Shown here: piece after piece, positions 37,222 through 59,020 of the stretch | How positions within the stretch are numbered: position 1 is the stretch's first letter | Layout of the letters: every line of letters starts with the position of its first letter | Origin: Treponemataceae bacterium | Lineage (GTDB): Bacteria; Spirochaetota; Spirochaetia; Treponematales; Rectinemataceae | Direction: 5' to 3' | DNA: 64,000 nt | Assembly: GCA_963678065.2 (NCBI GenBank) | Contig: CAXXVZ010000002.1 | Coordinates: 64,001-128,000, forward strand | Notes under the pieces: generated by a model | Seen by the model: only the letters and a program-made list of their open reading frames with translations | Told to the model about the DNA's origin: nothing | The model's database searches: none | Translations under genes and position numbers: made by a program

Positions 37222-37231
37222 GAATATTCTC

Positions 37232-38872: not shown

Positions 38873-38900
38873 ACAGACGCATGTCGTTTTTCCGCCACGA

Positions 38901-40170: not shown

Positions 40171-41100
40171 ATGGCGACGAAGGTCATTGTCGATTGCGAC
40201 AACACTATGGGGAAGCCTTACGCGGAGATCGATGACGGTCTCACGATCCTCTACGTGCTCGGCTGCGATGACCTCGAATTGCTCGGCATCACGAACTGCT
40301 ATGCGAATGCCTCTCTGCGGGATGTGGAATACTGGACCGACCGCTTCCTTCACGACATTGACCGCACCGATATACCGAGGTTTTCAGGGAAGCCGTACTT
40401 TGACCAGAACACGACGGACTGGTTCAAGCGCACGTGGGGGCACCACTTTCTGAACGAAAAGCCTACTACTGAAGGCCCGAGCGATGCCGCCGCTTTTCTG
40501 GTAGAGCAGGTAAACAGATATCCTGGCCAGATACACATTCTCGCGCTCGGCTCAATGACGAACCTGCTTGAAGCGTCGCGGATTGACAGTGGGTTTTTTG
40601 GAAAGGTCAATGAGATTTCGCTTATGGGCGGGATACTTGGGTACCTCTCGCTCAATGGTAGGCAGTGTTCCGAACTGAACCTCGCATGCAATCCGGAAGG
40701 GGCCTATCGGGTCCTGAACAATGGCAAATGCCCTGTCGTTGTCATGAATGCCTATACCTGTCTTCAGGCGCCTTTCAGCGATGGAGACATGGGAAAAATT
40801 TCGTTCTGGCCGGAACGCAGGAAACGAATGGTACGGGAATGGCTCAGGGTTTTTGAAGGAACGTTCTATCTATGGGACCTTCTGCCGGCGGTTTATCTGT
40901 CGCACCCGGACCTGTTCGATCTGAAGAAGGTGCACATTTCCTCCACGCTTCAGGATCTGGAGCGTGGACTTCTGGTGAAGGGTGATGGCGGCGCCGAAGT
41001 GATCATGCCTGACAATATCCTCGACAGAGCGCAGTTCATGGATCTCATCTATTCGGCTTGGCGCAAAGCCTGGGAAAAAGAGAGTAAAGGATTGAGATAG
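40171..41100 (+). CDS. Nucleoside hydrolase family protein (paralog 1)
   Basis: VDCDNT..G....DDG, LGSMTNL, MGG, ELNL, YLWD; GGAGG RBS. Confidence 0.9.
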   Translation: MATKVIVDCDNTMGKPYAEIDDGLTILYVLGCDDLELLGITNCYANASLRDVEYWTDRFLHDIDRTDIPRFSGKPYFDQNTTDWFKRTWGHHFLNEKPTTEGPSDAAAFLVEQVNRYPGQIHILALGSMTNLLEASRIDSGFFGKVNEISLMGGILGYLSLNGRQCSELNLACNPEGAYRVLNNGKCPVVVMNAYTCLQAPFSDGDMGKISFWPERRKRMVREWLRVFEGTFYLWDLLPAVYLSHPDLFDLKKVHISSTLQDLERGLLVKGDGGAEVIMPDNILDRAQFMDLIYSAWRKAWEKESKGLR

Positions 41101-41181
41101 TACCGTCCGGTGGTTGTGGCAGGTCGCTCTGCCCGCTGCTTCAGCAGCGGGTGATGTCCCATTGATGGCAAGGAGGCTTTC

Positions 41182-42414
41182 ATGTATCGGAAAATCGGTT
41201 CGGTGTTGCTCGCGCTTCTGTTCCTCGTGCCTTTCGTCGGCGCGCAGGCGCAGTTCGAGCAGAATTACAGGCAGATGACATGGGATCAGATCGCGGCCGA
41301 GGCTAAGGGGCAGACTGTCTATTACTACGCCTGGGGCGGCAGCGACATCATAAACAGTTTCGTCAACGGGTACTTCAAGGACCGCCTTGCCCAAAAATAC
41401 GGAGTGACCCTGAAATTCGTGCCGGTCACCGATGCGACGACCTATGTCAACAAGGTGCTCGGAGAGAAACAGGCTGGCAAGAACAGCGGAGGTTCCGTCG
41501 ACCTCGTGTGGACGAACGGCGAAAATTTCAGAACGATGAAGCAAGGCAAGCTGCTCTTCGGTCCTTACGCCGACAAACTCACAAACACCAAGTATTACAA
41601 CGAATCCAGTACCGCCTACGATTTCGGTTACCCGGTGGAAGGTTTCGAATCTCCTTACGGCGCGGCCCAGGTCGTCATGGAGTACAACTCCCAGTATGTG
41701 TCGAATCCGCCCAAAACCATTCCCGAGCTCGTGGCCTGGGTCAAGAAAAATCCGGGAAAATTCACCTACGCGGCGCCGCCTGATTTCACCGGCAGCGTGA
41801 TAGTCCGCCACTTCTTCTATGCGAACGCGAACAACATCAACGAACTGATGGGTCCCCTCAACATGTCAGTCTACGACAGGGTCGCCGCGAAAACCTGGGC
41901 AATGCTGAACGAAATCAAGCCGTATCTCTGGATGGGCGGCAAGACCTATCCTGAGAGCAGCATCAAGTCCCAGGAGCTCATGAGTAACGGCGACATCTGG
42001 ATCAGCTTTGAATACGGCCCGAAAGGTGCGGAATCGAGAATCGTGAAGGGAACCTATCCCGCTTCCATCAAGACTGCCGTACTCGATACCGGCACGATCG
42101 GCAATACCAATTTCCTGGCCATCTCCTTCAACTCATCGGTAAAAGCCGCGGCAATGGTGGTGTGCAACGAGATGATGGACCCCGAAGTGCAGTACAAGGC
42201 CAGCCTCGATCCCGACCAGGGTGGTATGGCGTGGATGTCGCCCCTCGATCTGACGAAGGTTTCCCGTGATTGGGCGGCAAAATTCGATGCGCTTCCCAGG
42301 CATCCTTCGACACTCTCGGGCGAGGTACTGAATTCGCACAAGGTATCCGAAATGATGTCCGATTGGCTCGTCAGGATCGAGAAGGATTGGCAGTCCAATG
42401 TCCTGAAGAAGTAA
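41182..42414 (+). CDS. ABC substrate-binding protein (YnjB-like, polyamine/thiamine clade)
   Basis: AKGQTVYYYAWGG, VDLVWTNGENF, NPGKFTY..PPDFTG, GTIGNTNFLAI. Confidence 0.88.
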   Translation: MYRKIGSVLLALLFLVPFVGAQAQFEQNYRQMTWDQIAAEAKGQTVYYYAWGGSDIINSFVNGYFKDRLAQKYGVTLKFVPVTDATTYVNKVLGEKQAGKNSGGSVDLVWTNGENFRTMKQGKLLFGPYADKLTNTKYYNESSTAYDFGYPVEGFESPYGAAQVVMEYNSQYVSNPPKTIPELVAWVKKNPGKFTYAAPPDFTGSVIVRHFFYANANNINELMGPLNMSVYDRVAAKTWAMLNEIKPYLWMGGKTYPESSIKSQELMSNGDIWISFEYGPKGAESRIVKGTYPASIKTAVLDTGTIGNTNFLAISFNSSVKAAAMVVCNEMMDPEVQYKASLDPDQGGMAWMSPLDLTKVSRDWAAKFDALPRHPSTLSGEVLNSHKVSEMMSDWLVRIEKDWQSNVLKK

Positions 42415-42459
42415 GGCCTCCGGTTTTGATTCCTCACTCAAGAGGCTGTTGATTGTTTC

Positions 42460-42504
42460 CCGCCCGTGTATCCATAACCAGCAGTACACGGGCGGCATTT
42501 TTTT
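42460..42504 (+). terminator. Intrinsic terminator-like hairpin between SBP and permease
   Basis: CCGCCCGTGTA-N14-TACACGGGCGG followed by CATTTTTTT. Confidence 0.7.
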
Positions 42505-42520
42505 AACCGCAGGAAATCCG

Positions 42521-43381
42521 ATGACAAAGCGCACTACAGTTACTTTGCTTCTCCTGCCGACCGTGGCTGTGCTCCTCTTCCTGTTCTTCGGGGGCCTGGT
42601 GATGGGCTTGATGCAGAGTTTCAGCTTCATGCCGATGATAGGGTTGAACGATTTCAACATCGATGCCTACAGAAGTCTGTTCAGCGATCGGGAATTTCTT
42701 ATGAGTCTTGCGCTCACTCTGTGGATCTCCATCAGCTCGACTCTGTTGACAGTCGTTTTTGCGATCATCACAGCCCTCGCCTTTCGGAGGACATTCCCCG
42801 GCAAACGGCTGATAAACTTCCTCTATCAATTTCCGATCACCATACCGCACATCGTAATAACGATAGGGACCATGCTCGTTTTTTCACAGAGCGGGATTGT
42901 CGCGAGAATTGCGTATCACCTGGGAATGATATCCGATCAAAGCACGTTTCCTGTTCTGATCTCCGACAATTTCGGATTGGGGATAATATACGTCTATTTG
43001 TGGAAGCAGATTCCCTTCGTCGGCGTCATCGTGCTGTCGATATTGCAGTCTCTGGGGAACAACTTTGAAGAGCTGGCCCGCTCTCTCGGAGCCAACAAGT
43101 GGCAGTCGTTCCGCCATGTACTCCTTCCGACAATCATTCCCGGCATCCTCCCCGCGAGCATCATCTGTTTTTCGTTTACGTTTGGATCCTACGAGGTGCC
43201 GTTCCTGCTGGGCAAACCCTATCCGGCGGTCATATCGGTGCTCGCCATGCGGCTGTACCAGGATGTGGACCTGAATGCCCGGCCGCAGGCCATGGCCACG
43301 GCCGTTTTCATGGCGGTTTTCATAAGCGTACTGGTGGTGTTCTACAGAAAACTTCTGAACAAAATGTCGGGGAGAGGATGA
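42521..43381 (+). CDS. ABC permease
   Basis: WKQIPF, EELARSLGA, FGSYEVP. Confidence 0.92.
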   Translation: MTKRTTVTLLLLPTVAVLLFLFFGGLVMGLMQSFSFMPMIGLNDFNIDAYRSLFSDREFLMSLALTLWISISSTLLTVVFAIITALAFRRTFPGKRLINFLYQFPITIPHIVITIGTMLVFSQSGIVARIAYHLGMISDQSTFPVLISDNFGLGIIYVYLWKQIPFVGVIVLSILQSLGNNFEELARSLGANKWQSFRHVLLPTIIPGILPASIICFSFTFGSYEVPFLLGKPYPAVISVLAMRLYQDVDLNARPQAMATAVFMAVFISVLVVFYRKLLNKMSGRG

Positions 43382-43384
43382 TGT

Positions 43385-44206
43385 ATGGAATCCGAAGAGA
43401 ATAAGGCCAACCCGATACATTGGATCATCTATGTGGGTGTCCTGGTTTCGATGATCGGCCCGCTGCTTCCACAGTTCGTGTGGCCGTTCGCGAAAAGCTG
43501 GTTTTTTCCTGATCTCATTCCTTCAGCATGGAGTGTGAGAGCATGGCAGTACATCGGCAATCCGAACAACCAGGTACTCGAGGCGGTCTGGAACAGTCTC
43601 GTCATAGCGGTGATAGTGATGTTCATCTCGGTAATTCTGGGCGTACCCGCAGGAAGGGCGCTCGGGATGTACCGTTTCCGCGGTAAGGGGATTGTCGAAC
43701 TGTTCATCCTTGCTCCGTCGATCATTCCGGGTCTGGCGGTAACTATGGGTATTCAGGTGGTCTTCATAAAGATGGGACTCGCGGACACCATGATCGGCGT
43801 TGTGCTCGTCCACCTCATTCCCACCATCCCCTACATGACCATCAGCATGAGCGGTGTTTTCGCAAATTACGATCCGGATTTCGAAGAGCAGGCAAAAAGC
43901 CTGGGAGCATCTCCGGCCAAGACATTCTTCCTCATCACCTTGCCGGCAGTCTTTCCGGGCATCGTCACCGGAGCCATGTTCGCGTTCCTGATCTCCTGGG
44001 GACAGTATCTTCTCACGGTGCTGATCGGGGGCGGGAGGGTGATCACGTTGCCGCTCCTTCTTTTTTCCTTTGCAGGCAGCAGGGATAACGCGCTCACGAG
44101 CGCGTTGAGCATCATCTTCCTGCTCCCCGCCATCGTTATCCTGGTTTTTACGAGCAAATTCCTGTCAGGAAAGTCCAGCGGAATGGGGGGCTTTGGCAAT
44201 ATATGA
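43385..44206 (+). CDS. ABC permease
   Basis: HLIPTIPY, EEQAKSLGAS, FLISWGQY. Confidence 0.92.
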   Translation: MESEENKANPIHWIIYVGVLVSMIGPLLPQFVWPFAKSWFFPDLIPSAWSVRAWQYIGNPNNQVLEAVWNSLVIAVIVMFISVILGVPAGRALGMYRFRGKGIVELFILAPSIIPGLAVTMGIQVVFIKMGLADTMIGVVLVHLIPTIPYMTISMSGVFANYDPDFEEQAKSLGASPAKTFFLITLPAVFPGIVTGAMFAFLISWGQYLLTVLIGGGRVITLPLLLFSFAGSRDNALTSALSIIFLLPAIVILVFTSKFLSGKSSGMGGFGNI

Positions 44207-45246
44207 CCTCGATCACTCTGAAAAACATCGGCAAGACCTATGAGGGTTGCAAGACTCCTTCCGTGGAAAATTTCAACCTCGAGATAAACCCCGGAGAGCT
44301 CGTCGCATTCCTGGGGCCGTCTGGATGCGGGAAAACCACGACTCTGAAAATGATCGCCGGATTGCATTCCGTCACGAAAGGCGATGTGCTGTTCAACAAT
44401 GTCCGTGTAAACGACGTAAAACCCGAGAAGAGGGAAGTGGTGATGGTCTACCAGAACTACCTCCTTTTCCCTTATATGAATGTGGCTGAAAACGTCGGTT
44501 TCGGGCTCCGGATGCGCAAGACGCCCAGGCAGGAAATCGACCGGCGCGTCAGGGAAATCCTGAAACTGGTAAAGCTGGAAGGCTTCGGCGACCGCAGCCC
44601 TTCCCAGTTGTCCGGAGGGCAGAAGCAGCGGGTGGCCCTGGCGCGGGCCTTGGTGATACGGCCGAAAATCCTGCTTCTTGACGAACCTCTGGCGAATCTC
44701 GACGCACATCTGCGCGACGAGATGCGCGATCTCATACTGAGCATCCACAAAGAATTCGAAGTCACCACCGTATTCGTCACCCACGACCAGGAAGAGGCGG
44801 TGCTGCTCGCAGACCGCATCGCGCTCATCTTCGACGGCCAGCTCGTGCAGTACAGCCCTTCGAGGGACTTCTACGAAAAACCCGCGAGCGAACGGATCGC
44901 AAGATTCTTCGGCAACGGGAACATCATCGAAGGGACTAGGGAAGGGACAGTAGTGGCGACGGCCCTGGGCAAATTCGCGGTCAGGCCGGATCTGCCGGTG
45001 CGCGATGGTCCCGTGAGCCTGATTATCAGGCCGGAATCGATCAGGCTTGCCCGGGAAGACGTCAACAGTTTCAGAACGAGGATCAGGAAAAAAATCTATA
45101 TGGGAACCTACACCAGATACAGCCTCGAAATGGCAGGGACCGTCTGGGAGACAACAGGGGAATCGAACGATATCGCCGGATACGAAACAGATGACGAAGC
45201 GTGGTTCACGCTCCCTCCCGAAAAGATATGGTTGATCCAGCGCTGA
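44203..45246 (+). CDS. ABC ATP-binding protein (PotA-like)
   Basis: GPSGCGKTT, LSGGQKQR, LLDEP, VTHDQEEA, C-terminal TOBE-like domain. Confidence 0.95.
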   Translation: MTSITLKNIGKTYEGCKTPSVENFNLEINPGELVAFLGPSGCGKTTTLKMIAGLHSVTKGDVLFNNVRVNDVKPEKREVVMVYQNYLLFPYMNVAENVGFGLRMRKTPRQEIDRRVREILKLVKLEGFGDRSPSQLSGGQKQRVALARALVIRPKILLLDEPLANLDAHLRDEMRDLILSIHKEFEVTTVFVTHDQEEAVLLADRIALIFDGQLVQYSPSRDFYEKPASERIARFFGNGNIIEGTREGTVVATALGKFAVRPDLPVRDGPVSLIIRPESIRLAREDVNSFRTRIRKKIYMGTYTRYSLEMAGTVWETTGESNDIAGYETDDEAWFTLPPEKIWLIQR

Positions 45247-45267
45247 GGCAGTTATGGAGAAGACTCG

Positions 45268-46689
45268 ATGATGGCAAAGAATAAGCCACTCAGAATCGGA
45301 CTCGCCGGCCTGCATTTCCCCGTCATGGAAGCGGAAGAACACGGTGTTTTCGAGTCAGCGAAAACTCTTGTCGATCGATATGCAGAAACCGGGCGTTTTG
45401 AAATCACGGCGTGGCCGCGGCTGATCTCCGGAGCGGGGGATGCGGCGAGGGCTGCCCTGTTTTTCGAAGAACAGGGAGTCGATTTTCTGTTGCTTCAAGC
45501 TTCATCGTTGACGATGGGCGACACTATCCTTCCCCTCGTCGAGCATATCGACAGAATCGGCCTGTGGGTCGTCGATGAACCGACATATGACGGCGAATTG
45601 CCCCTGAATTCTCTCACCGGATACAACCTCTGCGTTTCACGTATCAGGGGTCGCTGGGGAGACCGGAAGAAGCTCACGTGGTTTTGGGGGATGGGCGAGG
45701 ATTTTGGCACACGGCTTTGCGCCACAGCCAAAGCGCTTTCAGCGCTGAAGACGCTCGACGGGAGCAGAGTCGCTTCAATAGGTGGAGTTGTCCCCTCGTT
45801 CGAGAACCTCGAGTATCAGAGCGGTTTGTTCGAAAGGTCCCTTGGAATTGAAGTTGTGCCGGTGAGTCTCGAAGAACTGTTCCGTCGCTCCGAAGGGGCC
45901 CCGTCTTCCGAAGTGGAAACGATCCGGGCCTCTCTGATTGGTCAGGCTACCTGCGTCCGTGTCAGTGACGCATTGATGGAGAATACGGCCCGGATCTGCT
46001 ACGGATTGCGGACGGTAAAAGAACGAGAAAATGCCGACGCTTCGGCCCTGCGTTGCTGGCCGGAATTCCAGACCTGGAAAGGCATCGCTCCATGTGCGGC
46101 AGTAGCGTGGTCGAACGACCATTGCATGCCGACAGCCTGCGAAGGCGACGTTCCCGGAGCGGTTGCCATGCTGCTCGGGACTATCCTGTCAGGACGGGCT
46201 GCGTCCATGAACGATCCGGTTGCGCTCGACAGAAAAACCGGAACCGTCCAGATGTGGCACTGCGGTCCAGGTCCGGCAAGTTGGGCGGATGAGCGCGGGC
46301 AATGCCTTGACTACCACCATACGCTCAATCGCCGGCTGGCAGTCGATGCGCCCCGGGCGGGGGTTTCCTCCGACATCCGTTTTGCGAAGGGACCGGTCAC
46401 GATGCTCCGCATCCGGGGAGACGGGAAAAGCCTGTTTGTATTGGAGGGAGATGTAGTCGCAGGTCCCGCAAATCCCTATCCCGGGAGCGGAGGCTGGATC
46501 GGCAATCTGCGAATAGGCCAGGACAAAGTGTCTCTTGAGGACTTGCTGCACATGATGGCGGCATATGGTCTGGAGCATCATTATCCGATCATGCGTGAGC
46601 GGCATTTTGACACTCTGAAGGAAATGGCGGCATGGGCCGGATGGGCAATCCTTCCGCGCATCGATGCTCGGGGAAACCCGGTCATTTGA
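45268..46689 (+). CDS. L-fucose/L-arabinose isomerase family protein
   Basis: LNSLTG, ALRCWPEF, ACEGD, WHCG, LEHH. Confidence 0.82.
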   Translation: MMAKNKPLRIGLAGLHFPVMEAEEHGVFESAKTLVDRYAETGRFEITAWPRLISGAGDAARAALFFEEQGVDFLLLQASSLTMGDTILPLVEHIDRIGLWVVDEPTYDGELPLNSLTGYNLCVSRIRGRWGDRKKLTWFWGMGEDFGTRLCATAKALSALKTLDGSRVASIGGVVPSFENLEYQSGLFERSLGIEVVPVSLEELFRRSEGAPSSEVETIRASLIGQATCVRVSDALMENTARICYGLRTVKERENADASALRCWPEFQTWKGIAPCAAVAWSNDHCMPTACEGDVPGAVAMLLGTILSGRAASMNDPVALDRKTGTVQMWHCGPGPASWADERGQCLDYHHTLNRRLAVDAPRAGVSSDIRFAKGPVTMLRIRGDGKSLFVLEGDVVAGPANPYPGSGGWIGNLRIGQDKVSLEDLLHMMAAYGLEHHYPIMRERHFDTLKEMAAWAGWAILPRIDARGNPVI

Positions 46690-46704
46690 ACAGGAGGAAC
46701 GAAA

Positions 46705-48396
46705 ATGGGAAATACCTGCCATAAACTGCACGAGGATATTGTCGGTTGCTTGATCGGGTCGGCTGTCGGCGATGCCTTGGGCGGGCCGGTCGAAGGGCTC
46801 CATTACACCGATATAATCGAGCGGTACGGTGTCGTGAAGCGGATGCTCCCCTACCCTTCTTCACTTCCTCCTTCATTCCACGGCCCCTTCGGTTCCCGTG
46901 CAGGCGAATGCACGGACGATACCCGATTGGCAAAACTGATCTGCGCAGGTCTCATTGCTTCGGGCGGATTGCCACGATCCGGAAACATAAACCATTCCAT
47001 CTGCAAAACGTATTTTGCCACTGAATCGATACTCGAGAGGGGCTTCCTGGAAGAGTACGCGCTCAAGGCTCTTTACGGTCAAGGCAAGGAAGCATTTGGC
47101 GGAAAAACGACGAACGGAGCGATCATGGCGATAGCTCCCGTGGGAGTCCTGTTCCCGGGAGATCCCTACAGGACTTTCGACACGGCTTTCGATATCCTGT
47201 CCATGGCGACCGGCTCCGCGCGGATAAGCGCTGCCGCCGCGGCTGCCTGCATCAGCGCCGCTCTCAGCGGGAAAGGGAAAGCTCTCGATGTGGTCTTGTC
47301 CGGATTGGATGCCGCCGAGGAGCGGCTGCATCGCGTCGAGGGCAATTACTGGCACCACGGAGGCATGTATCCGCGAGTGGGCGGGTGGGTGTTGGGACTT
47401 GCCCGAAAGGCAGCCGACATCGCGTCGGCATACCGCGATCCATTGAACGAAGAATTCCGGAAGCGTCTTCATGAGGAAATCAACCAGCCATTCTTCGCGG
47501 ACGGCGATGAGACTCTTGCGATCGCCCTGGCAATGTTCGTCGCAGCGGAAGGCGACTTCCGGAGTTCGGTCGTCGGTGCGGCGAACTATGGGAAGGACTG
47601 CGACAGCTATGCCGCGGTCTCCGGGGCCATTTCAGGCGCGTTCAATGGCGTTTCCGCGATACCGGCGGAATGGATCGAAGCCGTTGAGTCCTGCGATTCC
47701 CCGCCACACCTGCGATATCTCGCCGATGGGCTCTGCGCAACGGTCACATCGAGGATGAGAAGGGAGCGGAACAGCGCTTCATTGGTCCCTTTCATGGAGA
47801 TATCCGGAGCAGCGAAGCCCGGACTGCTGGATGCCGTGCGCGCGAAAGATGCGCAAGCGGTCAGCCGGCTCCTCGGTGAAGGGGCCGATCTGGGCGAGCG
47901 CGGCGAACACGGGAGGAATTCCCTGCATCTCGCATGCGCGGCGGGCTGCCTCGATATCGTGAAGACCCTGCTGGTCTTCGGTGCGAACATAAATGAGAAG
48001 GACAACAACAAGACTACTGCGCTCCACTTCGCCGCATGGGAAAACCACATCGAAATCGTGGATCTCTTGCTGGATTGGGGCATTTTCCCCGAAGAACCCG
48101 AGGGCAGGGGATGGACCGCGCTTCACGATGCCGTGCGCAAGGAATACGCCGACATCCCCGTGCGCATTCTATCGAAAACCCGGGGGCTGACCGGAGAGCC
48201 CGAGAAAAAGGCAGAGCTCGAGGCTGTGCAGGGAGAGAACCGCTTTCTGAAACTGCTCGGGATACTGGCAGAATTCCACATCGATCTGGGAGCAATCGGC
48301 ATTTGCGGCCATGGTTTGTTGCATGATTCGAAGGAAAGGGGTTATTCCCGCGCAATCGAATTTCTGCTCGGCAAAGGTGTCGCTGATGAAGCCTGA
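46705..48396 (+). CDS. ADP-ribosylglycohydrolase family domain fused to ankyrin repeats
   Basis: GDALG, TDDT, NGAIM, GKDCDS; C-terminal GRNSLHLAC, KTTALHFAA, GWTALHDAV. Confidence 0.9.
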   Translation: MGNTCHKLHEDIVGCLIGSAVGDALGGPVEGLHYTDIIERYGVVKRMLPYPSSLPPSFHGPFGSRAGECTDDTRLAKLICAGLIASGGLPRSGNINHSICKTYFATESILERGFLEEYALKALYGQGKEAFGGKTTNGAIMAIAPVGVLFPGDPYRTFDTAFDILSMATGSARISAAAAAACISAALSGKGKALDVVLSGLDAAEERLHRVEGNYWHHGGMYPRVGGWVLGLARKAADIASAYRDPLNEEFRKRLHEEINQPFFADGDETLAIALAMFVAAEGDFRSSVVGAANYGKDCDSYAAVSGAISGAFNGVSAIPAEWIEAVESCDSPPHLRYLADGLCATVTSRMRRERNSASLVPFMEISGAAKPGLLDAVRAKDAQAVSRLLGEGADLGERGEHGRNSLHLACAAGCLDIVKTLLVFGANINEKDNNKTTALHFAAWENHIEIVDLLLDWGIFPEEPEGRGWTALHDAVRKEYADIPVRILSKTRGLTGEPEKKAELEAVQGENRFLKLLGILAEFHIDLGAIGICGHGLLHDSKERGYSRAIEFLLGKGVADEA

Positions 48397-49258: not shown

Positions 49259-49270
49259 AGGCAGGCAAGG

Positions 49271-50497
49271 ATGACACACAATCTGCGCTACGGAAACCGG
49301 GAGATCGTGGTCGATCTTCCCGACAATCAGACCGATATGATTTCCGCAGAACCGACTATTCATCGCGACGAATCACTGCTCGTTCTGGACGCCATAAACA
49401 AATCCTCCCCCATGCTCCAGGATTTTCTGGGTCAGAGTACCTCGGTAGTCATCGTGGTATCGGACCACACCCGCAATACGGGCAGCCGTACCTATATCCC
49501 TATTCTTCTGGATCAGATCAGGAAAACGGGACGGAAAATCACGATTCTTATCGCGCTCGGCCTGCACAGGCCCTCTACGGAGAGCGAAATTGCAGAAATT
49601 CTCGGCTGCGAACCCGGAAACGGTGTGGTTATCAGAAACCACGATCCTGATGCATATCTCGCAGAATGCGGCGAAGGGACGTTCTGCAAAACGGCGGTGG
49701 ATGCCGAGAAAATAATCCTCACCGGCTCCGTGGCTTTCCATCCGATGGCGGGTTATTCGGGCGGATGGAAAAGTCTTCTCCCGGGGATCGCTTCCCGCAC
49801 AAGTGTGATCGAAAATCACAGGCTCTACTTTTCCGGCAATACCATGAATTCCGGAGTCGGACCCGCACGTTTGGAGAATAATCCCATTTCATGCGATATA
49901 CGGCGCAGGACCCAAGGGTTCGCGGAGAAAACCTGGTGCCTGAATGTCGTCCAGAACGAAGCGAAATCGATAGTGTTCGCGGCGGCAGGCATCGTTGACG
50001 ACGCATGGAGAGCCTGCGCCGGTTATCTCGAACGGCGCAATTCACCAATGATCACGCGATTGTATCCGGTCGTCGTGGCTTCATCGGGAGGGTTCCCGTC
50101 GGATTTCAGTTTTTATCAGTCAATGAAGACCCTCACGAATGCCTCGCGCGCGTGCATCAAAGGAGGCAGCATCTATCTGCTCATGGAGTGCCGGAACGGC
50201 TGGGAACTGGATGAAAGCATTCTGGCTTTGAGACATCTGAAGCTGGAGGAGATCGCGTCGCAGGTGAGAAAAGAATTCTCCATGAGCGGTCTTGCGATGT
50301 ACATGGCCCTGTCGGTGATCAGGGCGCACAAGGTTTTCTGCCTGTCTTCCCTGCCGGAACGCGAGGTTAGCGGATTCGGCATGAAATATCTCGCATCGGA
50401 AGCCGAGATCAGGACTCTCGTCGACGCGGAGAACGCGGACCGGATTGCGGTCATACCTGCAGCTGCCGCCGTACTCCCCTCGCTCTACATCTGCTGA
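49271..50497 (+). CDS. LarA-family nickel-pincer 2-hydroxyacid racemase/epimerase
   Basis: VSDHTR, ALGLHR, NHD, FHPMAGYSGGWKS..PG, GGFPSD..YQSMK. Confidence 0.88.
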   Translation: MTHNLRYGNREIVVDLPDNQTDMISAEPTIHRDESLLVLDAINKSSPMLQDFLGQSTSVVIVVSDHTRNTGSRTYIPILLDQIRKTGRKITILIALGLHRPSTESEIAEILGCEPGNGVVIRNHDPDAYLAECGEGTFCKTAVDAEKIILTGSVAFHPMAGYSGGWKSLLPGIASRTSVIENHRLYFSGNTMNSGVGPARLENNPISCDIRRRTQGFAEKTWCLNVVQNEAKSIVFAAAGIVDDAWRACAGYLERRNSPMITRLYPVVVASSGGFPSDFSFYQSMKTLTNASRACIKGGSIYLLMECRNGWELDESILALRHLKLEEIASQVRKEFSMSGLAMYMALSVIRAHKVFCLSSLPEREVSGFGMKYLASEAEIRTLVDAENADRIAVIPAAAAVLPSLYIC

Positions 50498-50513
50498 CGG
50501 AAAGGGGACAAAA

Positions 50514-51593
50514 ATGCTCCACGCGGGCGTCGAAACGTATCAACGGGGATTTTCACTATTCGAAATGAAAATCCTTCTCAGAACCAACCGCAGTGAATTG
50601 ATCGCGGACGATGAGTATTTCCTGGGTGAAGGGTCTCATCTCCATTCCCTGCTCTCCAATTTCAACCGACTTGATGAAATCCCTGTTCCCGAAAGACCTG
50701 ATGTAGTCCTATCCATCGCCGATGTTCCCGGTTCCCCCTTCACCTTTGCCCAGACAGGAAATGGAGGGTATTCGATCACGGGAACGATTGTGGACTACGA
50801 GCGTTCCTGCATGGACAAACGGTCCAGCATCTTCGGAAACATGGGCCTCTTTTCGAAGCTGTTGGTACGGGAGCTGGAAGTCAGGGGGATCTACTCCATA
50901 CACTCCACTTCATTCTTCGATCGGATGCGGAACAGACTCTACGTCGTGATGGGAGGGTCAGGATCCGGCAAGAGCACGGTTTTGCTCAAAGCGATCTCCC
51001 TGGGCGGCATCGAGGTGTTCGGAACAGAGCTCACGCATTTTTCGTTCGGGGAAGGCAGGACAAAGATGCTCAAGGGTTCGCTGTGGCAGAACTGCAGGAT
51101 GGGGAATCTCATGATCGATTTCCCCGAACTTCTGGATCGTTTCGGTCTGGACTCCCCAAAGGGCGACCCCTGGCACAGCTACAAATCGGTCCCGCTCTTC
51201 TCCATTCAGGTTCCGGAGAATGTCCTCGATTCCGCTTCGATCGTGTTGGTGATGCCCCGCATCGAGGGAGAACGGAGTACCTCGAGCATACGTCAGGTGC
51301 CTGTGAGCTCGGTGCGGAATGTTCTCTTCCAGAACCTGTCCGATAAAGTCACCCCTCCCAGCCTCCTGTGGGGTAAGCATTTCATCCCGAGCCTCGACAG
51401 CCCGGATCGACAGACGGCGCGGATGGCTGCGGCCGAAAAGTTCATCAGCGAAGCTCCCGTCATCGAGTGCTGGAACGTGCTGTCCTCACCACATGAATGT
51501 CTGAACGGTATATTCCCCGCGCGGACCGGAAACGGCGCAGAAACGGAAAATCGAAACGAGCACATGAACGTGCAGGAGGTACTACATGAGTGA
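50514..51593 (+). CDS. Hypothetical P-loop protein, HprK/PEPCK-like putative kinase
   Basis: IHSTSF...VMGGSGSGKST...FGTE mirrors the H..GxSGxGKS..DD layout of HprK; start uncertain (alternative near 50564). Confidence 0.6.
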   Translation: MLHAGVETYQRGFSLFEMKILLRTNRSELIADDEYFLGEGSHLHSLLSNFNRLDEIPVPERPDVVLSIADVPGSPFTFAQTGNGGYSITGTIVDYERSCMDKRSSIFGNMGLFSKLLVRELEVRGIYSIHSTSFFDRMRNRLYVVMGGSGSGKSTVLLKAISLGGIEVFGTELTHFSFGEGRTKMLKGSLWQNCRMGNLMIDFPELLDRFGLDSPKGDPWHSYKSVPLFSIQVPENVLDSASIVLVMPRIEGERSTSSIRQVPVSSVRNVLFQNLSDKVTPPSLLWGKHFIPSLDSPDRQTARMAAAEKFISEAPVIECWNVLSSPHECLNGIFPARTGNGAETENRNEHMNVQEVLHE

Positions 51594-52407
51594 TTCGATA
51601 AAGAGAGGTATGGACGGTGTATATCCATTCCCGGTTTCGGGAAGAGAGAATCCGCCTCGCAGCACTGGACTTACCATGGTCATCGACATGGGCAGCGGAT
51701 TGATTGCCACGAAAGACTTGTTGGATTTCGCGGGGTATTGCATCGACATTTTCAAGCTTTCATCGGGAACGATGGCGCTCTATCCAGACGCGATCCTGCG
51801 CGAAAAAGTGGACCTCATAAAATCGCGCGGAATCGAAGTGGAGGCCGGCGGCTCTCATTTCGAAGTGGCGAACTGGAAAGGCATGAGCACGAAGTACTTC
51901 AAAAAGCTCGTCGAGATCGGGGTGGATGTCGTGGAAATCGCCGATGGCCATCTTCCGCTGGCTGACAGTGTGCGGATCGACAGGATCAAAGAGGCGAAGG
52001 ATCTGGGACTCAAGGTCGCGACTGAGGTCGGAAAGAAAGAACCATCGAAAAACATCAAGGCGCCGACCATACTGGAGCAGTATCGCGACAACATTGAAGC
52101 CGGAAGCGATTACGTCATCATAGAAGGCAAGGCTTCGGGGATGGATGTCGGCATCTTTGACGAAAAAGGGAACATCAACGAACAGGAGTTGACAGAGATC
52201 ACTGGCGGAATCTCCGACATGGGCAGGGTCATCTGGGAAGCTCCGTTGCGACCTCAGCAGCAGGCACTCATTCTCCGGTTCGGCCCCAATGTCAATCTCG
52301 GGAACATTTTCCCTCAGGAAGTGTATCCTCTCGAGCTGCTGAGAAATGCGCTCATGCTTTCTCCCCTCATCAATGCCTATAACAGGGAACAGGGGGCGGC
52401 AAAATGA
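51586..52407 (+). CDS. comA: Phosphosulfolactate synthase (ComA) family protein
   Basis: PRSTGLTMVIDMG, VEIADG, TEVGKK, IIEG, IWEAP..QQ, FGPNVNLGNI, LELLR. Confidence 0.88.
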   Translation: MSDSIKRGMDGVYPFPVSGRENPPRSTGLTMVIDMGSGLIATKDLLDFAGYCIDIFKLSSGTMALYPDAILREKVDLIKSRGIEVEAGGSHFEVANWKGMSTKYFKKLVEIGVDVVEIADGHLPLADSVRIDRIKEAKDLGLKVATEVGKKEPSKNIKAPTILEQYRDNIEAGSDYVIIEGKASGMDVGIFDEKGNINEQELTEITGGISDMGRVIWEAPLRPQQQALILRFGPNVNLGNIFPQEVYPLELLRNALMLSPLINAYNREQGAAK

Positions 52408-53237
52408 GGTTGACGGTGCCTGAACTGGAAAGCAAAGCCCGAGGACTGCGGATCGATACGATAAAGATGATCGCGCAAGCTGGGGGAGGACATCTGGGCG
52501 GGTCTCTGAGCGCGATGGATATCATGACGGCCCTCTATTTCAATGTACTGAGAATCGATCCTGCAGATCCGGAGAAACACGACAGGGACAGGTTCATCCT
52601 CTCGGCGGGCCACAAGGCCGCGGGATACGTCCCCGTGCTTGCGGAGCGCGGGTATTTTCCGAAGAACCTTCTGCCCACGTTCAACAAACTCGAAAGCCGT
52701 TTCGGGATGCACCCCGACAAGAACAAGATCCCCGGCTGCGACGCATCGACAGGGAGCTTGGGACACGGTCTCCCCGTCGGATTGGGAATGGCCCTCGCCC
52801 TGAGACTGGACGGGCTCGATAGCAAGGTGTTTGTCCTGCTCGGCGACGGCGAATTGCATGAGGGAACCAATTGGGAGGCGGCTATGGGAGCAGCCCAGCA
52901 CAAAGCGTCCAATCTCATCGCCATCGTAGACTACAACAAGTGTTCGATGGACGGGCCGATCGACCAGGTTGTCTCTCTCGAGCCTCTGGTGGACAAGTGG
53001 AAATCTTTCGGCTGGGACACGATCCGCATTGACGGGAACGATATGGCACAGGTGTTGGGAGCCTTGCAGGATGCGGCGGGCCGCGGTAAACGCGGGATCG
53101 GAACTCCTGCAGTGATCATCGCCGACACGATAAAGGGAAAGGGAGCGGCGTTCGCCGAGGGCGATTACCGTTGGCATTACGGCTGCCCCAGCGACGAACA
53201 GCTGGCCGAGTCAATCAAGGCACTGGGAGGCATCTGA
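52404..53237 (+). CDS. Transketolase, N-terminal (TPP-binding) subunit
   Basis: GHLGGSLS, DRFILSAGH, MHP, GSLGHG, GDGE..EG, TIKGKG, WH. Confidence 0.95.
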   Translation: MRLTVPELESKARGLRIDTIKMIAQAGGGHLGGSLSAMDIMTALYFNVLRIDPADPEKHDRDRFILSAGHKAAGYVPVLAERGYFPKNLLPTFNKLESRFGMHPDKNKIPGCDASTGSLGHGLPVGLGMALALRLDGLDSKVFVLLGDGELHEGTNWEAAMGAAQHKASNLIAIVDYNKCSMDGPIDQVVSLEPLVDKWKSFGWDTIRIDGNDMAQVLGALQDAAGRGKRGIGTPAVIIADTIKGKGAAFAEGDYRWHYGCPSDEQLAESIKALGGI

Positions 53238-53238
53238 A

Positions 53239-54204
53239 ATGGCTGGATTAAGCATGGCTGATATAGAAAAAATGTCCGCCCGGGATGCGTTCGGTCTCGC
53301 ACTCTCGGAAATCGGAGCGGAGAACGACAAAATCGTCCTACTGGGAGCGGATGCGATCGGAAGTACGCGCGCGGCCGGATTCGCGAAACGCTTCCCCGAT
53401 CGTACCTTCAATTTCGGCATCGCGGAGCAGGAGATGATTTCCGCCGCCGCCGGCTTTGCGGCCTGCGGCAAGATACCCGTAGCGACCGCGTATGGATTTC
53501 TGATTTCCCTCAGGGCCTGCGAGCAGGTGAGGTCGGACATCTGCTACCCCAAGCTGAACGTGAAACTCATGTCGACTCACACGGGTCTGTCGATGTCGGA
53601 GGCAGGGACGACCCATCATTCCACCGAGGACATCGCAATCATGCGCAGCTTCGCGAACATGACGATTGTCGCTCCCTCTGATTCCCTTGAAACAGTGAAG
53701 GCCGTCAAGGCCGTCATCGATTATCCGGGGCCCGTATATCTCCGGATGGGCCGCGGAGAAACTGAATCCGTGTACCAGGAGGATTACGAGTTCGTCATCG
53801 GGAAAGCTGTCTCTCTGCGCGAAGGCCGGGATGTCACGATAATCGCGTGCGGCATTATGGTAGCGGAAGCCCTGAAGGCGGCGGCAACGCTCTCGTCCGA
53901 GGGAATCTCCGTGAGGGTCCTGAACATGCACACGATAAAGCCTCTTGACGTCGAGGCAGTCCTGCTCGCGGCGAAAGAAACGAAAGCCATCGTGACCGCC
54001 GAGGAGCATACGATAATCGGCGGATTGGGCGAGGCCGTCGCCGGGGTAGTCTGCGAAAATACGCCTGTGCCTGTCGTCAAGGTCGGATTGAATGACTGCT
54101 TCGGAATCATCGGACCGGAAGACGGCGTCAAACAGAAACTGGGGCTGAATGCGGAGGCGATATGCCGCTCCGTAAAAAAAGCGATCCTGCTCAAGGCTGT
54201 GTGA
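53239..54204 (+). CDS. Transketolase, C-terminal subunit
   Basis: FGIAEQ, RACEQVR, GTTHHSTED, TIKPLD, EEH..GGLG. Confidence 0.95.
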   Translation: MAGLSMADIEKMSARDAFGLALSEIGAENDKIVLLGADAIGSTRAAGFAKRFPDRTFNFGIAEQEMISAAAGFAACGKIPVATAYGFLISLRACEQVRSDICYPKLNVKLMSTHTGLSMSEAGTTHHSTEDIAIMRSFANMTIVAPSDSLETVKAVKAVIDYPGPVYLRMGRGETESVYQEDYEFVIGKAVSLREGRDVTIIACGIMVAEALKAAATLSSEGISVRVLNMHTIKPLDVEAVLLAAKETKAIVTAEEHTIIGGLGEAVAGVVCENTPVPVVKVGLNDCFGIIGPEDGVKQKLGLNAEAICRSVKKAILLKAV

Positions 54205-54219
54205 GCGAAGAGGTGCGGA

Positions 54220-56058
54220 ATGGTCGGCGGATATTGGCTGAAGGCGTTGAGGGTTGATCTTGATCGGGGCGAGGTGCGCGACGAAAACCTGGATGAGAAC
54301 CTGGCAAAAGCCTGCATAGGAGGGGCCGGATTCGCCTCATACTTCCTTCTTCGCGAGGTCGGCAGGGATGTGGATGCCCGGTCTCCGTCCAACCTGCTCG
54401 CATTCGCGACCGGTCCTTTCCAGGCGATGAAAATTCCCGGCGCTGCCAAGTTTTCCATTTGCACACGATCGCCGCTTACAGGAACATTTACAGACTCCGC
54501 CGCGGGGGGAGAATTCGGTTTTGCATTGAAACGAACGGGCTATGATCTCATCCTTGTTTCAGGCAGGAGCCGGGAACCGGTATACCTCCATGTGACCGAT
54601 GGTACGGCGGAAATCCTGCCAGCCGCAGATCTGTGGGGCAAGGATTCTGTCGAGACATCCGAGATCCTGTCGGGCAGACACGGTGGAGCTTCTGTCGCGG
54701 CGATAGGTGCCGCAGGAGAAAACGGCATCGCGATGTCGTGCGTGTATGTCGACAGGTACTCCGCCGCAGGAAGGGGGGGAACCGGATGCGTCATGGGATC
54801 CAAGCAATTGAAGGCAGTAGTGCTTTCCGGAAACCTGGATCCGCCGGTCTCCGATAAAACGAAAGTCGCGGCATACGAAAAGCGGTTCAGGAAATCGATC
54901 GCCGAGACGGCTGCAGGATTCCGTGAAGGGGGGACGGTAGGCGGCCTCGCTCCGGGCGAGGAATCCGGAAATCTGCCCTTGCGCAACTGGAGTCAGGTAG
55001 GATGGAAGGAAGGTGCCGCGAAGATCGGATACCCGGGATATTCCTCGTTGCACAACACCTTGCACCCCTGCAAATATTGCACGCTCTCGTGCCACAGGCG
55101 GTCGGATGTCTCTTTCCCTGACGGGTATTCGTACAAGGGTCCTGCGCCTGAATACGAAACCTTGGCGATGCTTGGCTCGTGCTGCCTTATCGACGATCTT
55201 GAATCGCTCGTGAAGGCGAACGATGCGTGCAATCGTGCGGGCCTTGATACTATGAGCGCTGGTGGCTGCGCGGCCTTCGCGATGGAGGCGCTGGAGAAAG
55301 GGCACACAAATGGGTTCTTCCCGTCCTATGAACTCTCATGGGGTAATGGCGCGGGCTTGCTCGAGTTCATAGGAGAACTGATCGGGCGCAGGGGATTCGG
55401 AGGACTGTTTTCGGATGGAATCGTCGTGGCCGCTTCAAAATTCCTTCCCGAGGCCTCCCGCTACGCGCATCACGTGAAAGGACAGGACATACCGGCGCAC
55501 GATCCCCGCGTCTACTATAACCTCGGCTTGTCCTATGCCACGGGAAACCGCGGCGCCTGTCACATGCGCGCATATTCACAGATTTCCACTATGGGGGCCC
55601 TGTTGCCCGAGGTCGGCATCGATGTCGCGCCGGCGCCCGACACCCTGGAAGGCGCCGCTTTTGTCGTCAAAACCTATCAGGATTTCACGGCATTCTACAA
55701 TTCCTGCGTGCTGTGCCAGTTCATGATATGGGGCGGTCTCAGCTTGGGCGACATGACGGATTGTCTGAACGCGGTTACCGGATGGCAGATGACTCCGCGC
55801 GATGTGATGGAGTGCGGCGAGAGGGTTTTCACCGTACAGAGGGAGCTGAACAATATCTGGGGCTTTTCCAGAAAAGACGACAAATTGCCCGAGCGGTTTT
55901 TCGCGGCTTCTTCATCGGGGCCCCGGGCGGGCAAAGCGCCTGATCGGGATCGCTTTGCCGCCGAGCTGGCAGAGTTGTATCGTCTCCGCGGCTGGGACGA
56001 GGACGGCATCGTCAGAAACGAGACACTTATACGGCTCGGGGTAGACAAATGGATATAG
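54220..56058 (+). CDS. Aldehyde:ferredoxin oxidoreductase family (W/Mo-pterin)
   Basis: SPLTG, IGAAGE, AAGRGG.G.VMGSK.LKA, CxxCxxxC, PEYET, HDPR, CQF, RGWD. Confidence 0.94.
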   Translation: MVGGYWLKALRVDLDRGEVRDENLDENLAKACIGGAGFASYFLLREVGRDVDARSPSNLLAFATGPFQAMKIPGAAKFSICTRSPLTGTFTDSAAGGEFGFALKRTGYDLILVSGRSREPVYLHVTDGTAEILPAADLWGKDSVETSEILSGRHGGASVAAIGAAGENGIAMSCVYVDRYSAAGRGGTGCVMGSKQLKAVVLSGNLDPPVSDKTKVAAYEKRFRKSIAETAAGFREGGTVGGLAPGEESGNLPLRNWSQVGWKEGAAKIGYPGYSSLHNTLHPCKYCTLSCHRRSDVSFPDGYSYKGPAPEYETLAMLGSCCLIDDLESLVKANDACNRAGLDTMSAGGCAAFAMEALEKGHTNGFFPSYELSWGNGAGLLEFIGELIGRRGFGGLFSDGIVVAASKFLPEASRYAHHVKGQDIPAHDPRVYYNLGLSYATGNRGACHMRAYSQISTMGALLPEVGIDVAPAPDTLEGAAFVVKTYQDFTAFYNSCVLCQFMIWGGLSLGDMTDCLNAVTGWQMTPRDVMECGERVFTVQRELNNIWGFSRKDDKLPERFFAASSSGPRAGKAPDRDRFAAELAELYRLRGWDEDGIVRNETLIRLGVDKWI

Positions 56059-56888
56059 GAGTTCATGTCTCGCTGTGGACTCCCGAATGGGCCAGCCCTT
56101 TCCTGGATGCGCTCGACGCGGCGGCGGATCTCGGATGCACCTGTGTGGAAATCCCGCTCATGGATCCTTTCAATTTCCCTCTGGAAGATATTGAACGCCG
56201 GCTCTCGAAGAATGACCTGAAAGTCTATTGCGGTACGGGGTTGGGCAAAGATACCGACATCGGAAGCGTTTCCGCTACGGTGAGGGAGCGAGGAGTCCGG
56301 CACCTGAGCGAATGTTTGCGAATCTGCGCCGATCTGGGAAGCGACTCCCTCGGAGGCGTCTTGCATTCTCCGTGGGGAATGAGGGGGCCGGTCGATTCCG
56401 GATATGCTCAGCGTGTGGCAGCATCGCTCGGATACGTGGCAGACAAGGCGGCCGAATCCGGAATCGGCATCGCGCTGGAGTGCATAAACCGATACGAGAA
56501 CTCCTTCGTGAACACTGTCGATCAGGGGCTGTCGCTGCTGCGGATCATCGGCCGAGAGAATGTTGGCCTGCATCTGGACACCTATCACATGAACATCGAG
56601 GAGCACGGGATCGTACCCGCAATAGCCGAGGCGGGAAAGACAATCCTGCGGATGCACTTGAGTGAGAACACCAGGGGGTATCCCGGAAGCGGCTCGCTTC
56701 CCTGGAAAGAAATTCTCGCCGCAGCCCAAAAGGCAGGGTACCGGGGACCATGGATCATAGAAAGCTATGTATGCCCGGATTTCCCGGCGTCCGCCGATGT
56801 GTGCGTGTGGAGACCGATCGAGCCCGATATGTCCGCGAGTCTGCGGAAATCACTGGAGTTTCTCGGAGGGCTTATTGCAGCAGACTGA
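56049..56888 (+). CDS. Ketose 3-epimerase (D-psicose/D-tagatose 3-epimerase family)
   Basis: VEIP, ECINRYE, HLDTYHMNIEE, HLSENTRGYPGSG, IES, VWR. Confidence 0.88.
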   Translation: MDIGVHVSLWTPEWASPFLDALDAAADLGCTCVEIPLMDPFNFPLEDIERRLSKNDLKVYCGTGLGKDTDIGSVSATVRERGVRHLSECLRICADLGSDSLGGVLHSPWGMRGPVDSGYAQRVAASLGYVADKAAESGIGIALECINRYENSFVNTVDQGLSLLRIIGRENVGLHLDTYHMNIEEHGIVPAIAEAGKTILRMHLSENTRGYPGSGSLPWKEILAAAQKAGYRGPWIIESYVCPDFPASADVCVWRPIEPDMSASLRKSLEFLGGLIAAD

Positions 56889-56923
56889 GAATCGCGGAAT
56901 AGATGTAGCAGATCAGGGGACCT

Positions 56924-57628
56924 TCAGGTCTGTGGCCGGGGGGTATTCCTGATCTGTTTTTTTTCCCGGAAGACCGACAAGATGTTTTCTTCGCTCAGCA
57001 GAATGTGCGAGCGGAACGCTTTCTCGTATTTTTCCTGTTCTCCTGAAGCGAGAGCTTCTATCAGCTCCCTGTGCATCATGGACATGTATGTGTCGGAGAA
57101 CTCGAAATAATGGATCATGCGGAAAAGAACGTGCATCTGTGACGCGATGTCCTTCCATGCCTTCACGAGACGCTGGTTGTCCGATTTCTGAATGATGAAC
57201 AGATGGAATTCAATGTCCAGATCCGATAATTCGGCGTAGTTGTATGATTTCTCCGACGCGACGATCTTGTCGAGAATCGAGTTGAGAGTGACAAAATCAT
57301 TTTCCGTCAAATTCCCGTGGGCAAGGCGGACTCCAAGCACTTCGAGGCTCGCCCGCAGTGTCACCAGCTCGTTGATATCCTTCTCTGTGAAATCGATGAC
57401 CGATATGCCCCGCCGCGCTTTGAACAGTATGAGTCCTTCCTGGGCCAGTTCCCGTATCGCTTCGCGCACAGGTGTCTTGCTGATGGCCATCTGGGTGGAT
57501 ATCGCCTGTTCGACCAGCTTGGTCCCAGGGGGAAGTTGGCCGTTTAAAATCGCTTCCCGAAGGTTGCTGTACGCGATTTTATACAGAGGCGAGTTCAGCG
57601 ATTCCTTTATCTTGAGTTCGTGATGCAT
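56924..57628 (-). CDS. GntR-family regulator (FCD domain)
   Basis: LPPGTKLVE, SKTPVREAI, RASLE, DIEFH, H..LIEAL; convergent on the operon end. Confidence 0.93.
   Translation of the reverse strand: MHHELKIKESLNSPLYKIAYSNLREAILNGQLPPGTKLVEQAISTQMAISKTPVREAIRELAQEGLILFKARRGISVIDFTEKDINELVTLRASLEVLGVRLAHGNLTENDFVTLNSILDKIVASEKSYNYAELSDLDIEFHLFIIQKSDNQRLVKAWKDIASQMHVLFRMIHYFEFSDTYMSMMHRELIEALASGEQEKYEKAFRSHILLSEENILSVFREKKQIRNTPRPQT

Positions 57629-59000: not shown

Positions 59001-59020
<20 letters not shown>

Follow-up and report, generated by a model that had tools for sequence, protein, structure and literature searches.

A conserved gene cluster in a Treponemataceae genome and its possible role in the breakdown of arsenosugars

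What would a bacterium degrade with two nucleoside hydrolases, an ABC importer, a lactate-racemase homologue and a relative of the coenzyme M enzyme ComA, all encoded in one operon? We wish to answer this question for a locus in a 64,000-nucleotide stretch of DNA from a Treponemataceae bacterium (assembly GCA_963678065.2, contig CAXXVZ010000002.1, positions 64,001 to 128,000), hereafter the window. Fifteen open reading frames (ORFs) lie on its plus strand at 40171-56888, and a sixteenth, encoding a GntR/FCD regulator, lies convergently on the minus strand at 56924-57628. A first-pass annotation read the set as a route from a 5-deoxy-5-sulforiboside to phosphoenolpyruvate (PEP) and sulfite, with ComA running in reverse, and added the proviso that C5 might carry another substituent. 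We conclude that the cluster is a real and undescribed catabolic pathway, conserved among anaerobic bacteria, and that the proviso looks right. Tentatively, and at somewhat less than an even chance, we take the substrates to be 5-dimethylarsinoyl-ribosides (arsenosugars), which would be broken down to PEP and dimethylarsinous acid (DMA(III)) by a retro-Michael cleavage of the C-As bond. The gene content, its conservation, the protein families, the residue swaps and the ties of the importer are observations; every substrate and reaction is what we infer from here on.

All sixteen ORFs are found, and the family names that the first-pass annotation gave them agree with Pfam, NCBIfam and PDB searches, the kinase being linked to its group only via distant relatives. 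The genes are also conserved together elsewhere, as that annotation had supposed: a core of kinase, ComA-like enzyme, transketolase, aldehyde:ferredoxin oxidoreductase (AOR), epimerase, LarA and isomerase is found, reshuffled, in 24 loci. Seven of these come from a ComA query of species-representative genomes and 17 are metagenome loci reached through the kinase alignment, with near-copies among them (L015/L019, L006/L016, L010/L027 and L025/L026). Loci L009, L010, L011 and L024-L031 have the genes in a different order. In the loci where adjacency can be tested, the kinase gene lies beside the ComA gene in 23 of 23, the ComA gene beside transketolase in 19 of 20, and the LarA gene beside the kinase in 19 of 23; since the loci were picked by ComA and kinase, these counts show linkage and not frequency. 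The cluster is rare, its kinase occurring beyond this genome in 1 of 400 genomes of the phylum (our spirochaete sample holds 401 genomes including this one) and in 1 of 60 relatives. The closest named loci belong to spirochaete metagenome-assembled genomes, and source labels outside the spirochaetes include Atribacteria, Firmicutes and Bacteroidetes.

In two variant loci, L028 and L030, the genes include a GH42, a further LarA-like protein and a beta-hydroxyacid dehydrogenase, the isomerase is another paralogue, with PF02952, and no nucleoside hydrolase occurs in the available stretch. Because the hydrolase content differs there while the core persists, we conclude that the core is constant and that the entry hydrolases vary. 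Across the loci the ribosidase types comprise two or three nucleoside hydrolases, an ADP-ribosylglycohydrolase (ARH) and, in the variant loci, GH42; the variant locus L024 has a different YnjB paralogue. A third nucleoside-hydrolase paralogue, which has lost the aspartate cluster, lies between hydrolase 2 and LarA in three loci (L007:5065-5949, L008:6870-7763 and L020:2823-3674), and its sequence suggests that it is possibly a non-catalytic subunit.

How might these enzymes work upon one substrate? The importer, of the YnjB type, would take up 5-deoxy-5-dimethylarsinoyl-ribosides in oxo or thio form. It consists of a binding protein (41182-42414; NF008633, 441 bits against a cut-off of 203), two permeases with PF00528 (42449-43381, with a true start probably near 42521, and 43385-44206) and an ATPase with PF00005 and TOBE (44203-45246), all of them, like the enzymes below, on the plus strand. 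Arsenoribose would then be released by hydrolases, several ribosidase types serving different aglycones of one sugar. Nucleoside hydrolase 1, of the DCDNT subfamily (40171-41100; PF01156, E-x-N motif kept), is likely a ribosidase for 5-substituted ribosides, and an ARH-fold protein with ankyrin repeats (46705-48396; PF03747 and Ank, TDD and DxDS motifs intact) is likely a second; the ankyrin repeats are missing in L112 and L113. Nucleoside hydrolase 2 (48311-49258; PF01156, true start probably near 48386) is 36% identical to hydrolase 1, both being of the IU type.

Transketolase needs the xylulose configuration, and an aldose-ketose isomerase together with a ketose 3-epimerase leads there from a ribo-pentose. 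The operon encodes both, and they would bring arsenoribose to its xylulose form. The isomerase is fucose-isomerase-like and distant from SftI (45268-46689; NF048012, E 5e-34, below cut-off); SftI is its sole family match, at 118 bits against a cut-off of 700, and the isomerases of the variant loci reach 238 and 286 bits. The epimerase (56049-56888) belongs to the D-tagatose/D-psicose/L-ribulose family, matching a solved D-tagatose 3-epimerase at E 2e-45 with the metal ligands aligned. A transketolase split into an N-terminal chain (52404-53237; PF00456) and a C-terminal chain (53239-54204) would yield 3-(dimethylarsinoyl)lactaldehyde together with a C2 unit. In the C-terminal chain the GEDG motif has Ala or Gly in place of its Asp, which is missing in 18 of 18 orthologues; we set this swap aside as weak, most other split transketolases of the genome also being without the Asp.

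The lactaldehyde fragment would be oxidised by a tungsten-type AOR (54220-56058; PF02730 and PF01314) with a gain of reduced ferredoxin. Maturation genes, namely ThiF or small MoaD/ThiS-like ORFs (the small ones named by eye), adjoin the cluster in L007, L008, L011, L029, L112 and L113. The resulting C3 acid would be racemised by a LarA-family enzyme (49271-50497) and phosphorylated by a P-loop kinase (50514-51593), whereupon a ComA-fold enzyme (51586-52407) would eliminate dimethylarsinous acid and form PEP. This last step would be a reverse Michael addition with As(III) as nucleofuge in place of sulfite; as a matter of chemical analogy, elimination of As(III) from a beta-arsinoyl carboxylate would parallel the elimination of sulfite. 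The route would salvage all five carbons of the ribose, and no sugar kinase would be needed because C5 would be blocked; as the first-pass annotation stated, there is none among the operon genes. ComA itself joins PEP and sulfite, and its product is (R)-phosphosulfolactate (PMC9457059). Since this product is L-configured, the fragment of a D-sugar needs a racemase. The order of chemistry and the need for the racemase, both taken over from the first-pass annotation, should hold for any C5 substituent of higher Cahn-Ingold-Prelog priority.

Which substituent would the ComA-like enzyme remove? The protein matches PF02679 over cut-off (E 1e-72) and reaches 261 of the 280 bits of TIGR03849, and it falls in a separate clade of 61 clusters, to which a tree built from 29 chosen sequences gives a local support of 0.997. 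With the ComA/XcbB phosphosulfolactate synthases it shares the Pfam family and the Glu and Lys core: E117, E147 and K151 are invariant in 61 of 61 clusters, E93, K150 and E218 are retained as well, and the IEG motif is aligned. In 1qwg the acidic/lysine core, with its active-site roles, is what we take E103, E133, K137 and E171 to be.

The clade differs from the 58 next-nearest homologues by fixed swaps (K to M35, F to S60, T to S90, F/L to H91, T to H122, R to K182, E to A183 and R to M257), H91 and H122 being new invariant residues. In terms of motifs, the DKG of ComA/XcbB has become DMG, (F/W)GT has become SGT, PGGT has become AGGS, SDG(S/T) has become ADGH, RE has become KA and LRGDT has become LML(M/S)P. 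Canonical ComA carries two basic residues, the Lys of DKG and the Arg of the C-terminal LRGDT, and both are Met here: M35 in 61 of 61 clusters, and M257 in 60 of 61 with one gap. Of the 58 next-nearest homologues all 58 retain the Arg, as do M. jannaschii ComA and 1u83, the second solved homologue; M. jannaschii ComA has the canonical residues, and 1u83 has Asn for the DKG Lys, so that only the Arg is universal. From alignment, the swapped residues would line the sulfite site, and the enzyme is likely a beta-lyase that frees a neutral group from a 2-phospho-3-substituted lactate. The setting differs from that of ComA/XcbB too, being catabolic and beside a new kinase. As for the first-pass expectation of a locus without comB and comC, comB was not found in the genome, and comC was not searched for. 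Because comB was not found, we reject a forward role in coenzyme M synthesis. ComA is a homotrimer (bioRxiv 2024.10.15.618377). In genomes G022 and G060 the ComA loci have an unrelated gene context; in G022 (L044:9547-15079) ComA is followed by ORFs that resemble, by eye, sulfate adenylyltransferase and sulfatases.

The LarA-family racemase is a predicted one with an uncharged side-chain pocket, and it scores below all NCBIfam LarA cut-offs. The equivalents of R75, H108, H174, K184 and H200 of NPN-dependent LarA racemases, which cover the cofactor and catalytic residues, are all kept, as they are in Mar2 and the hydrophobic 2-hydroxyacid racemases of the LarA superfamily. At the four specificity positions, taken from PMC7583248 and PMC11770544, the signature is P-M-L-A, and 20 sequences have no Lys or Arg there; in malate racemases a Lys at a specificity position binds the second anion (PMC7583248, PMC11770544). 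A malate racemase is the nearest solved relative. The signature fits no LarA group described in section 6 of PMC11770544. Taken together, the ComA-like and LarA pockets point to a neutral, methyl-like substituent and make sulfite unlikely as the leaving group.

Between these two genes lies the kinase, an unnamed P-loop protein, tentatively placed in the HprK/PEPCK-like group, with 75 close clusters and abutting ComA. It has no Pfam or NCBIfam match at E 0.001, its profile meets only P-loop noise in the PDB, and its Atlas matches are unnamed clusters only; distant relatives found with the family profile match HprK-related models, down to E 4e-16. We regard it as likely a 2-hydroxyacid 2-kinase. 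Its sister family (proteins P0076-P0121 and P0411-P0529) is large and also unnamed, with 623 clusters at E 1e-30 and labels of Syntrophales, Chloroflexota and other anaerobes; the distant clade has no plasmid match and one extra spirochaete match. One member of the sister family, P0235, and a canonical ComA, P0382, share a longest-contig value of 108,895, and a module of kinase and canonical ComA for true sulfolactate desulfonation may exist within that family.

The importer offers a view of the substrate from outside the cluster. The cluster binding proteins nest within the YnjB family, keeping 48 of 60 family-conserved positions; the binding protein of the window has no PDB relative. In the spirochaete sample YnjB occurs in 23 of the 400 other genomes, and 46 of the 401 carry TIGR04283, the arsenosugar glycosyltransferase (43 over cut-off). 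The transferase is present in 10 of the 23 YnjB genomes versus 36 of the 377 others (Fisher p 6e-5, kin not being independent), and in 7 of the 23, from 3 families, it lies no more than 5 kb from YnjB on the same contig. Conversely, ArsS is present in 0 of the 23 YnjB genomes versus 25 of the 36 genomes with the transferase and without YnjB. The same contrast among transferase genomes alone is 0 of 10 versus 25 of 36 (p 9e-5; kin inflate both p-values). The genomes with YnjB and transferase span 6 families, all of them without ArsS, and the contrast persists within families f41 and f44, which hold both states. ArsS makes 5'-deoxy-5'-dimethylarsinoyladenosine (DDMAA) from DMA(III) (PMC13598754), and arsenosugars, of which thio analogues exist as well, are ribosides that carry a dimethylarsinoyl group and differ in their aglycones (PMC11626214, PMC6656958). 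The exclusion of ArsS from YnjB genomes is thus the pattern expected if YnjBCD imports the ArsS product, each genome either making the compound or importing it.

YnjB and ArsS loci also have accessory genes in common, namely DedA/VTT, a PRK06370 reductase, rhodanese and TIGR04282/04283. Neighbours of YnjB in 8 annotated plasmid loci include a CDP-alcohol phosphatidyltransferase (5 of 8), DedA/TVP38, a MerA-like reductase, DUF547, a DUF2064 protein (TIGR04282-like, below cut-off) and, once, a nucleoside hydrolase of the hydrolase 1 subfamily, which is the sole plasmid match of that subfamily at E 1e-25 (72,556 records) and stands directly before a ynjBCD-type transporter. In the YnjB loci L082-L084 an APH-fold kinase lies beside arsenosugar transferases, which suggests import, C1 phosphorylation and sugar transfer to lipid. 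A further locus, L117:2909-12974, combines ArsS, TIGR04282 and TIGR04283 with YdjY, rhodanese and dicluster oxidoreductase genes and abuts mtnK-mtnA; in its family 8 of 8 tested genomes have ArsS without ArsM.

ArsS, TIGR04283 and ArsM were not found in the genome of the window, so that the organism would be a consumer of arsenosugars. ArsP-family permeases occur in 8 of 8 full-cluster genomes, which is weak evidence because 8 of 14 controls carry them too. About 250 kb from the cluster, on the same contig, an ars region (G000:C2:371897-386000) holds several ArsP-family permeases, Acr3 and ORFs like arsR, arsD, arsA and arsC, these last named by eye.

A number of observations weigh against arsenosugars as the substrate, or against parts of the route. 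The racemase step is one of them: its stereochemical need stands, but searches of this genome with hidden Markov models, and by tblastn with the proteins of relatives, gave none of the known cofactor genes larB, larC and larE, and larB and larC together occur in only 2 of 7 related metagenome-assembled genomes. The assembly is 99.94% complete in 5 contigs and holds five LarA homologues. For the step to work, the assembly must have a gap, or the cell must scavenge the cofactor or use a different one, and the five homologues may reflect one of the latter two. A conserved His of the YnjB family is Asn in 7 of 7 cluster binding proteins, and the literature searched yields no YnjB ligand, only passing mentions of YnjB. 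ARH enzymes presumably cleave alpha-ribosides, whereas arsenosugars are beta, and the placing of the swapped ComA residues at the sulfite site comes from alignments. No arsenic-resistance or arsenic-regulator gene is found in or beside the 24 loci and three extensions. An ArsM-like gene occurs in only 6 of 23 ArsS-positive spirochaetes, never over cut-off; with the methylthioribose kinase and isomerase genes (mtnK-mtnA) that one ArsS locus abuts, this raises the prospect that the ArsS system may handle non-arsenic adducts. The named samples with this DNA, none of the listed ones being an RNA dataset, are groundwater, sludge and biofilm, freshwater or engineered and anoxic, and arsenosugars are mainly marine (PMC11626214) and scarcer in such habitats, although in freshwater mussels they dominate the extractable arsenic (PMC10594586).

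It is important, then, to weigh the arsenosugar reading against other groups at C5. That the group is a sulfonate, as the first-pass annotation proposed, now seems improbable to us. By that account a 5-deoxy-5-sulforiboside would pass through sulfolactaldehyde and sulfolactate, and reversed ComA would give PEP and sulfite, the very pair of its demonstrated reaction (PMC9457059). SftI, the isomerase's only family match, is a sulfoquinovose isomerase, LarA's nearest solved relative is a malate racemase, comB was not found, and the beta-hydroxyacid dehydrogenase of the variant loci is in the sulfolactaldehyde reductase family, though it scores better to tartronate semialdehyde reductase. Yet the two basic ComA residues are Met throughout the clade, and the LarA pocket not only lacks the malate-racemase Lys but has an Asp two positions before it in 12 of 20 orthologues. 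The importer family points to arsenosugars, and the operon encodes no sulfite exporter, TauE lying 3.6 kb away in 1 of 24 loci. The cluster nucleoside hydrolases, moreover, keep a Glu that we take to be the binder of the ribose 5'-OH. A hexose version, as in the transketolase pathway of sulfoglycolysis (sulfo-TK), we reject because a ribo configuration follows from the ribosidases and the 3-epimerase, and because the lower module requires a C3 acid.

A thioether at C5 is a more serious competitor, if still an unlikely one. The same route would then act upon 5'-methylthioadenosine (MTA) or 5-methylthioribose, perhaps also S-adenosylhomocysteine or S-ribosylmethionine, and the ComA-like enzyme would act upon 2-phospho-3-methylthiolactate and set free methanethiol or some other thiol; 5-deoxyribose could use the upper part and exit as lactate. 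The Met-rich, uncharged pockets of ComA and LarA suit a methylthio group equally well, the habitats are freshwater and anoxic, and MTA and 5'-deoxyadenosine occur universally and, by way of the dihydroxyacetone phosphate (DHAP) shunt, sustain growth of E. coli. MtnK was not found in the genome and no MtnN scores over cut-off, so that a salvage gap exists, which further tells against arsenic. Against a thioether, 8 matches to the PNP/UDP family in the genome could open MTA. A thioether also leaves unexplained the link of YnjB to arsenosugar transferases, the exclusion of ArsS, and why several unrelated ribosidases and the GH42 of the variant loci should be needed. Those importer patterns are retained if the group is some other neutral adduct made by ArsS-type radical SAM systems (e.g. 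methylsulfinyl, methylsulfonyl or a selenium adduct) and imported by many bacteria for lipid head groups. Such an adduct would account for the ArsS-positive spirochaetes, most of them, that have no clear ArsM, and for the recurrent rhodanese and selenoprotein-linked genes of these loci; but no such compound was found in the literature, where the sole ArsS product found is the arsenical DDMAA (PMC13598754), and environmental DMA could replace ArsM, and we give it only a slim chance. It is very improbable that there is no single linear route, with ComA acting forward or non-catalytically amid an ordinary nucleoside and pentose catabolic set: the missing LarA cofactor genes would suit it, and against it stand the adjacencies of kinase, ComA, LarA and transketolase kept despite reshuffling, one conserved operator and an operon without ribokinase. 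The arsenosugar reading accommodates four features together, namely a ribo configuration, a blocked C5, more than one ribosidase and pockets that are neutral.

We also wish to place the pathway among known systems. In its upper half it works like the sulfo-TK pathway (SqvD, SqwGH, SqwI and SqwF; Clostridium sp. MSTE9), with which it would have in common the kinase-free breakdown of a sugar substituted at its end, carried out by a split transketolase and an isomerase of the fucose-isomerase-like type (PMC12890257). It is not a member of that group: the split transketolase is present, but the isomerase falls far below the SftI/SqvD model, and Pfam and NCBIfam searches of the 16 genes gave no sulfoquinovosidase, SqwI isomerase or C2-sulfonate end enzymes. 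Unlike sulfo-TK, the cluster has ribosidases and a 3-epimerase, which point to a ribo-pentose, and it would make a C3 fragment, oxidise it by AOR and recover its carbon with the help of the racemase, the kinase and the ComA-like lyase. Arsenosugar biosynthesis clusters (ArsS TIGR04167, TIGR04282 and TIGR04283) and ynjBCD-ynjF loci share with it the YnjB importer family and probably the sugar; they build or lipidate a riboside, whereas the cluster, without transferases, would degrade one. The DHAP shunt for MTA and 5'-deoxyadenosine likewise uses the carbon of 5'-substituted nucleosides. There C1 is phosphorylated, an aldolase is used and the C2 aldehyde keeps the substituent; the proposed route would have transketolase instead of aldolase, and the substituent removed. 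A 2026 review on the catabolism of sulfoquinovose names SuyAB as the enzyme that cleaves sulfolactate, and in its available text neither "epimerase" nor "ferredoxin" occurs. Our literature search, which went by titles and the starts of abstracts and covered few subscription papers, returned no description of this gene set and no paper joining lactate racemase and sulfolactate.

A sigma-70-type promoter, TTGACA-17-TATACT, lies upstream of the operon at 40119-40147 on the plus strand; with 11 of 12 consensus matches it bears out the near-consensus promoter of the first-pass annotation, ranks first among 11 sites (8.4 being expected in shuffles) and has the same layout in L029. From the second permease onward the intergenic gaps run from -44 to +21 nt, most genes abutting or overlapping. 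A palindromic operator with a GTCGAC core (40128-40145, on neither strand in particular; 16 of 18 positions palindromic) overlaps the promoter with its 12-bp perfect core at 40131-40142. Four related loci (L009, L010, L011 and L029) have the GTCGAC core in promoter regions too, including beside divergent gntR genes, and the exact operator 10-mer has 2 occurrences in the genome. The palindrome is likely the binding site of the cluster GntR (PF00392 and PF07729), an orthologue of which flanks the cluster in most loci. The GC content of the locus is 0.56, versus 0.61 and 0.65 in its flanks. A divergent operon for a sugar ABC transporter and GH3 (34574-39974, minus strand) shares the intergenic region; in L019 the binding protein and ATPase of this GH3-linked transporter lie on the opposite side of the cluster, the transporter being outside the conserved core. 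Downstream in the window, at 59001-61592 on the minus strand, GatB is apparently fused to an asparaginase-like C-terminal domain, judging from the translation.

A 2023 review says that microbes help to transform arsenosugars, by biochemical pathways that are as yet unknown (PMC10594586). With a defined gene set the breakdown of arsenosugars could be put to a direct test, and for anoxic sediments and groundwater a route to toxic DMA(III) would be added. If the arsenosugar reading is true, the missing genes for microbial arsenosugar degradation are supplied and the orphan YnjBCD transporter gains a ligand. With rather more reserve, we suggest that this may be the first genetic pathway for anaerobic arsenosugar catabolism, with non-oxidative C-As cleavage by a repurposed ComA, and that the widespread YnjBCD systems, including that of E. 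coli, may be importers of arsenoribosides. Under any of the three main rivals the pathway would still be an undescribed one, with a kinase of a new family and a ComA clade whose specificity has changed, and the enzymes are therefore worth assaying whichever substituent holds.

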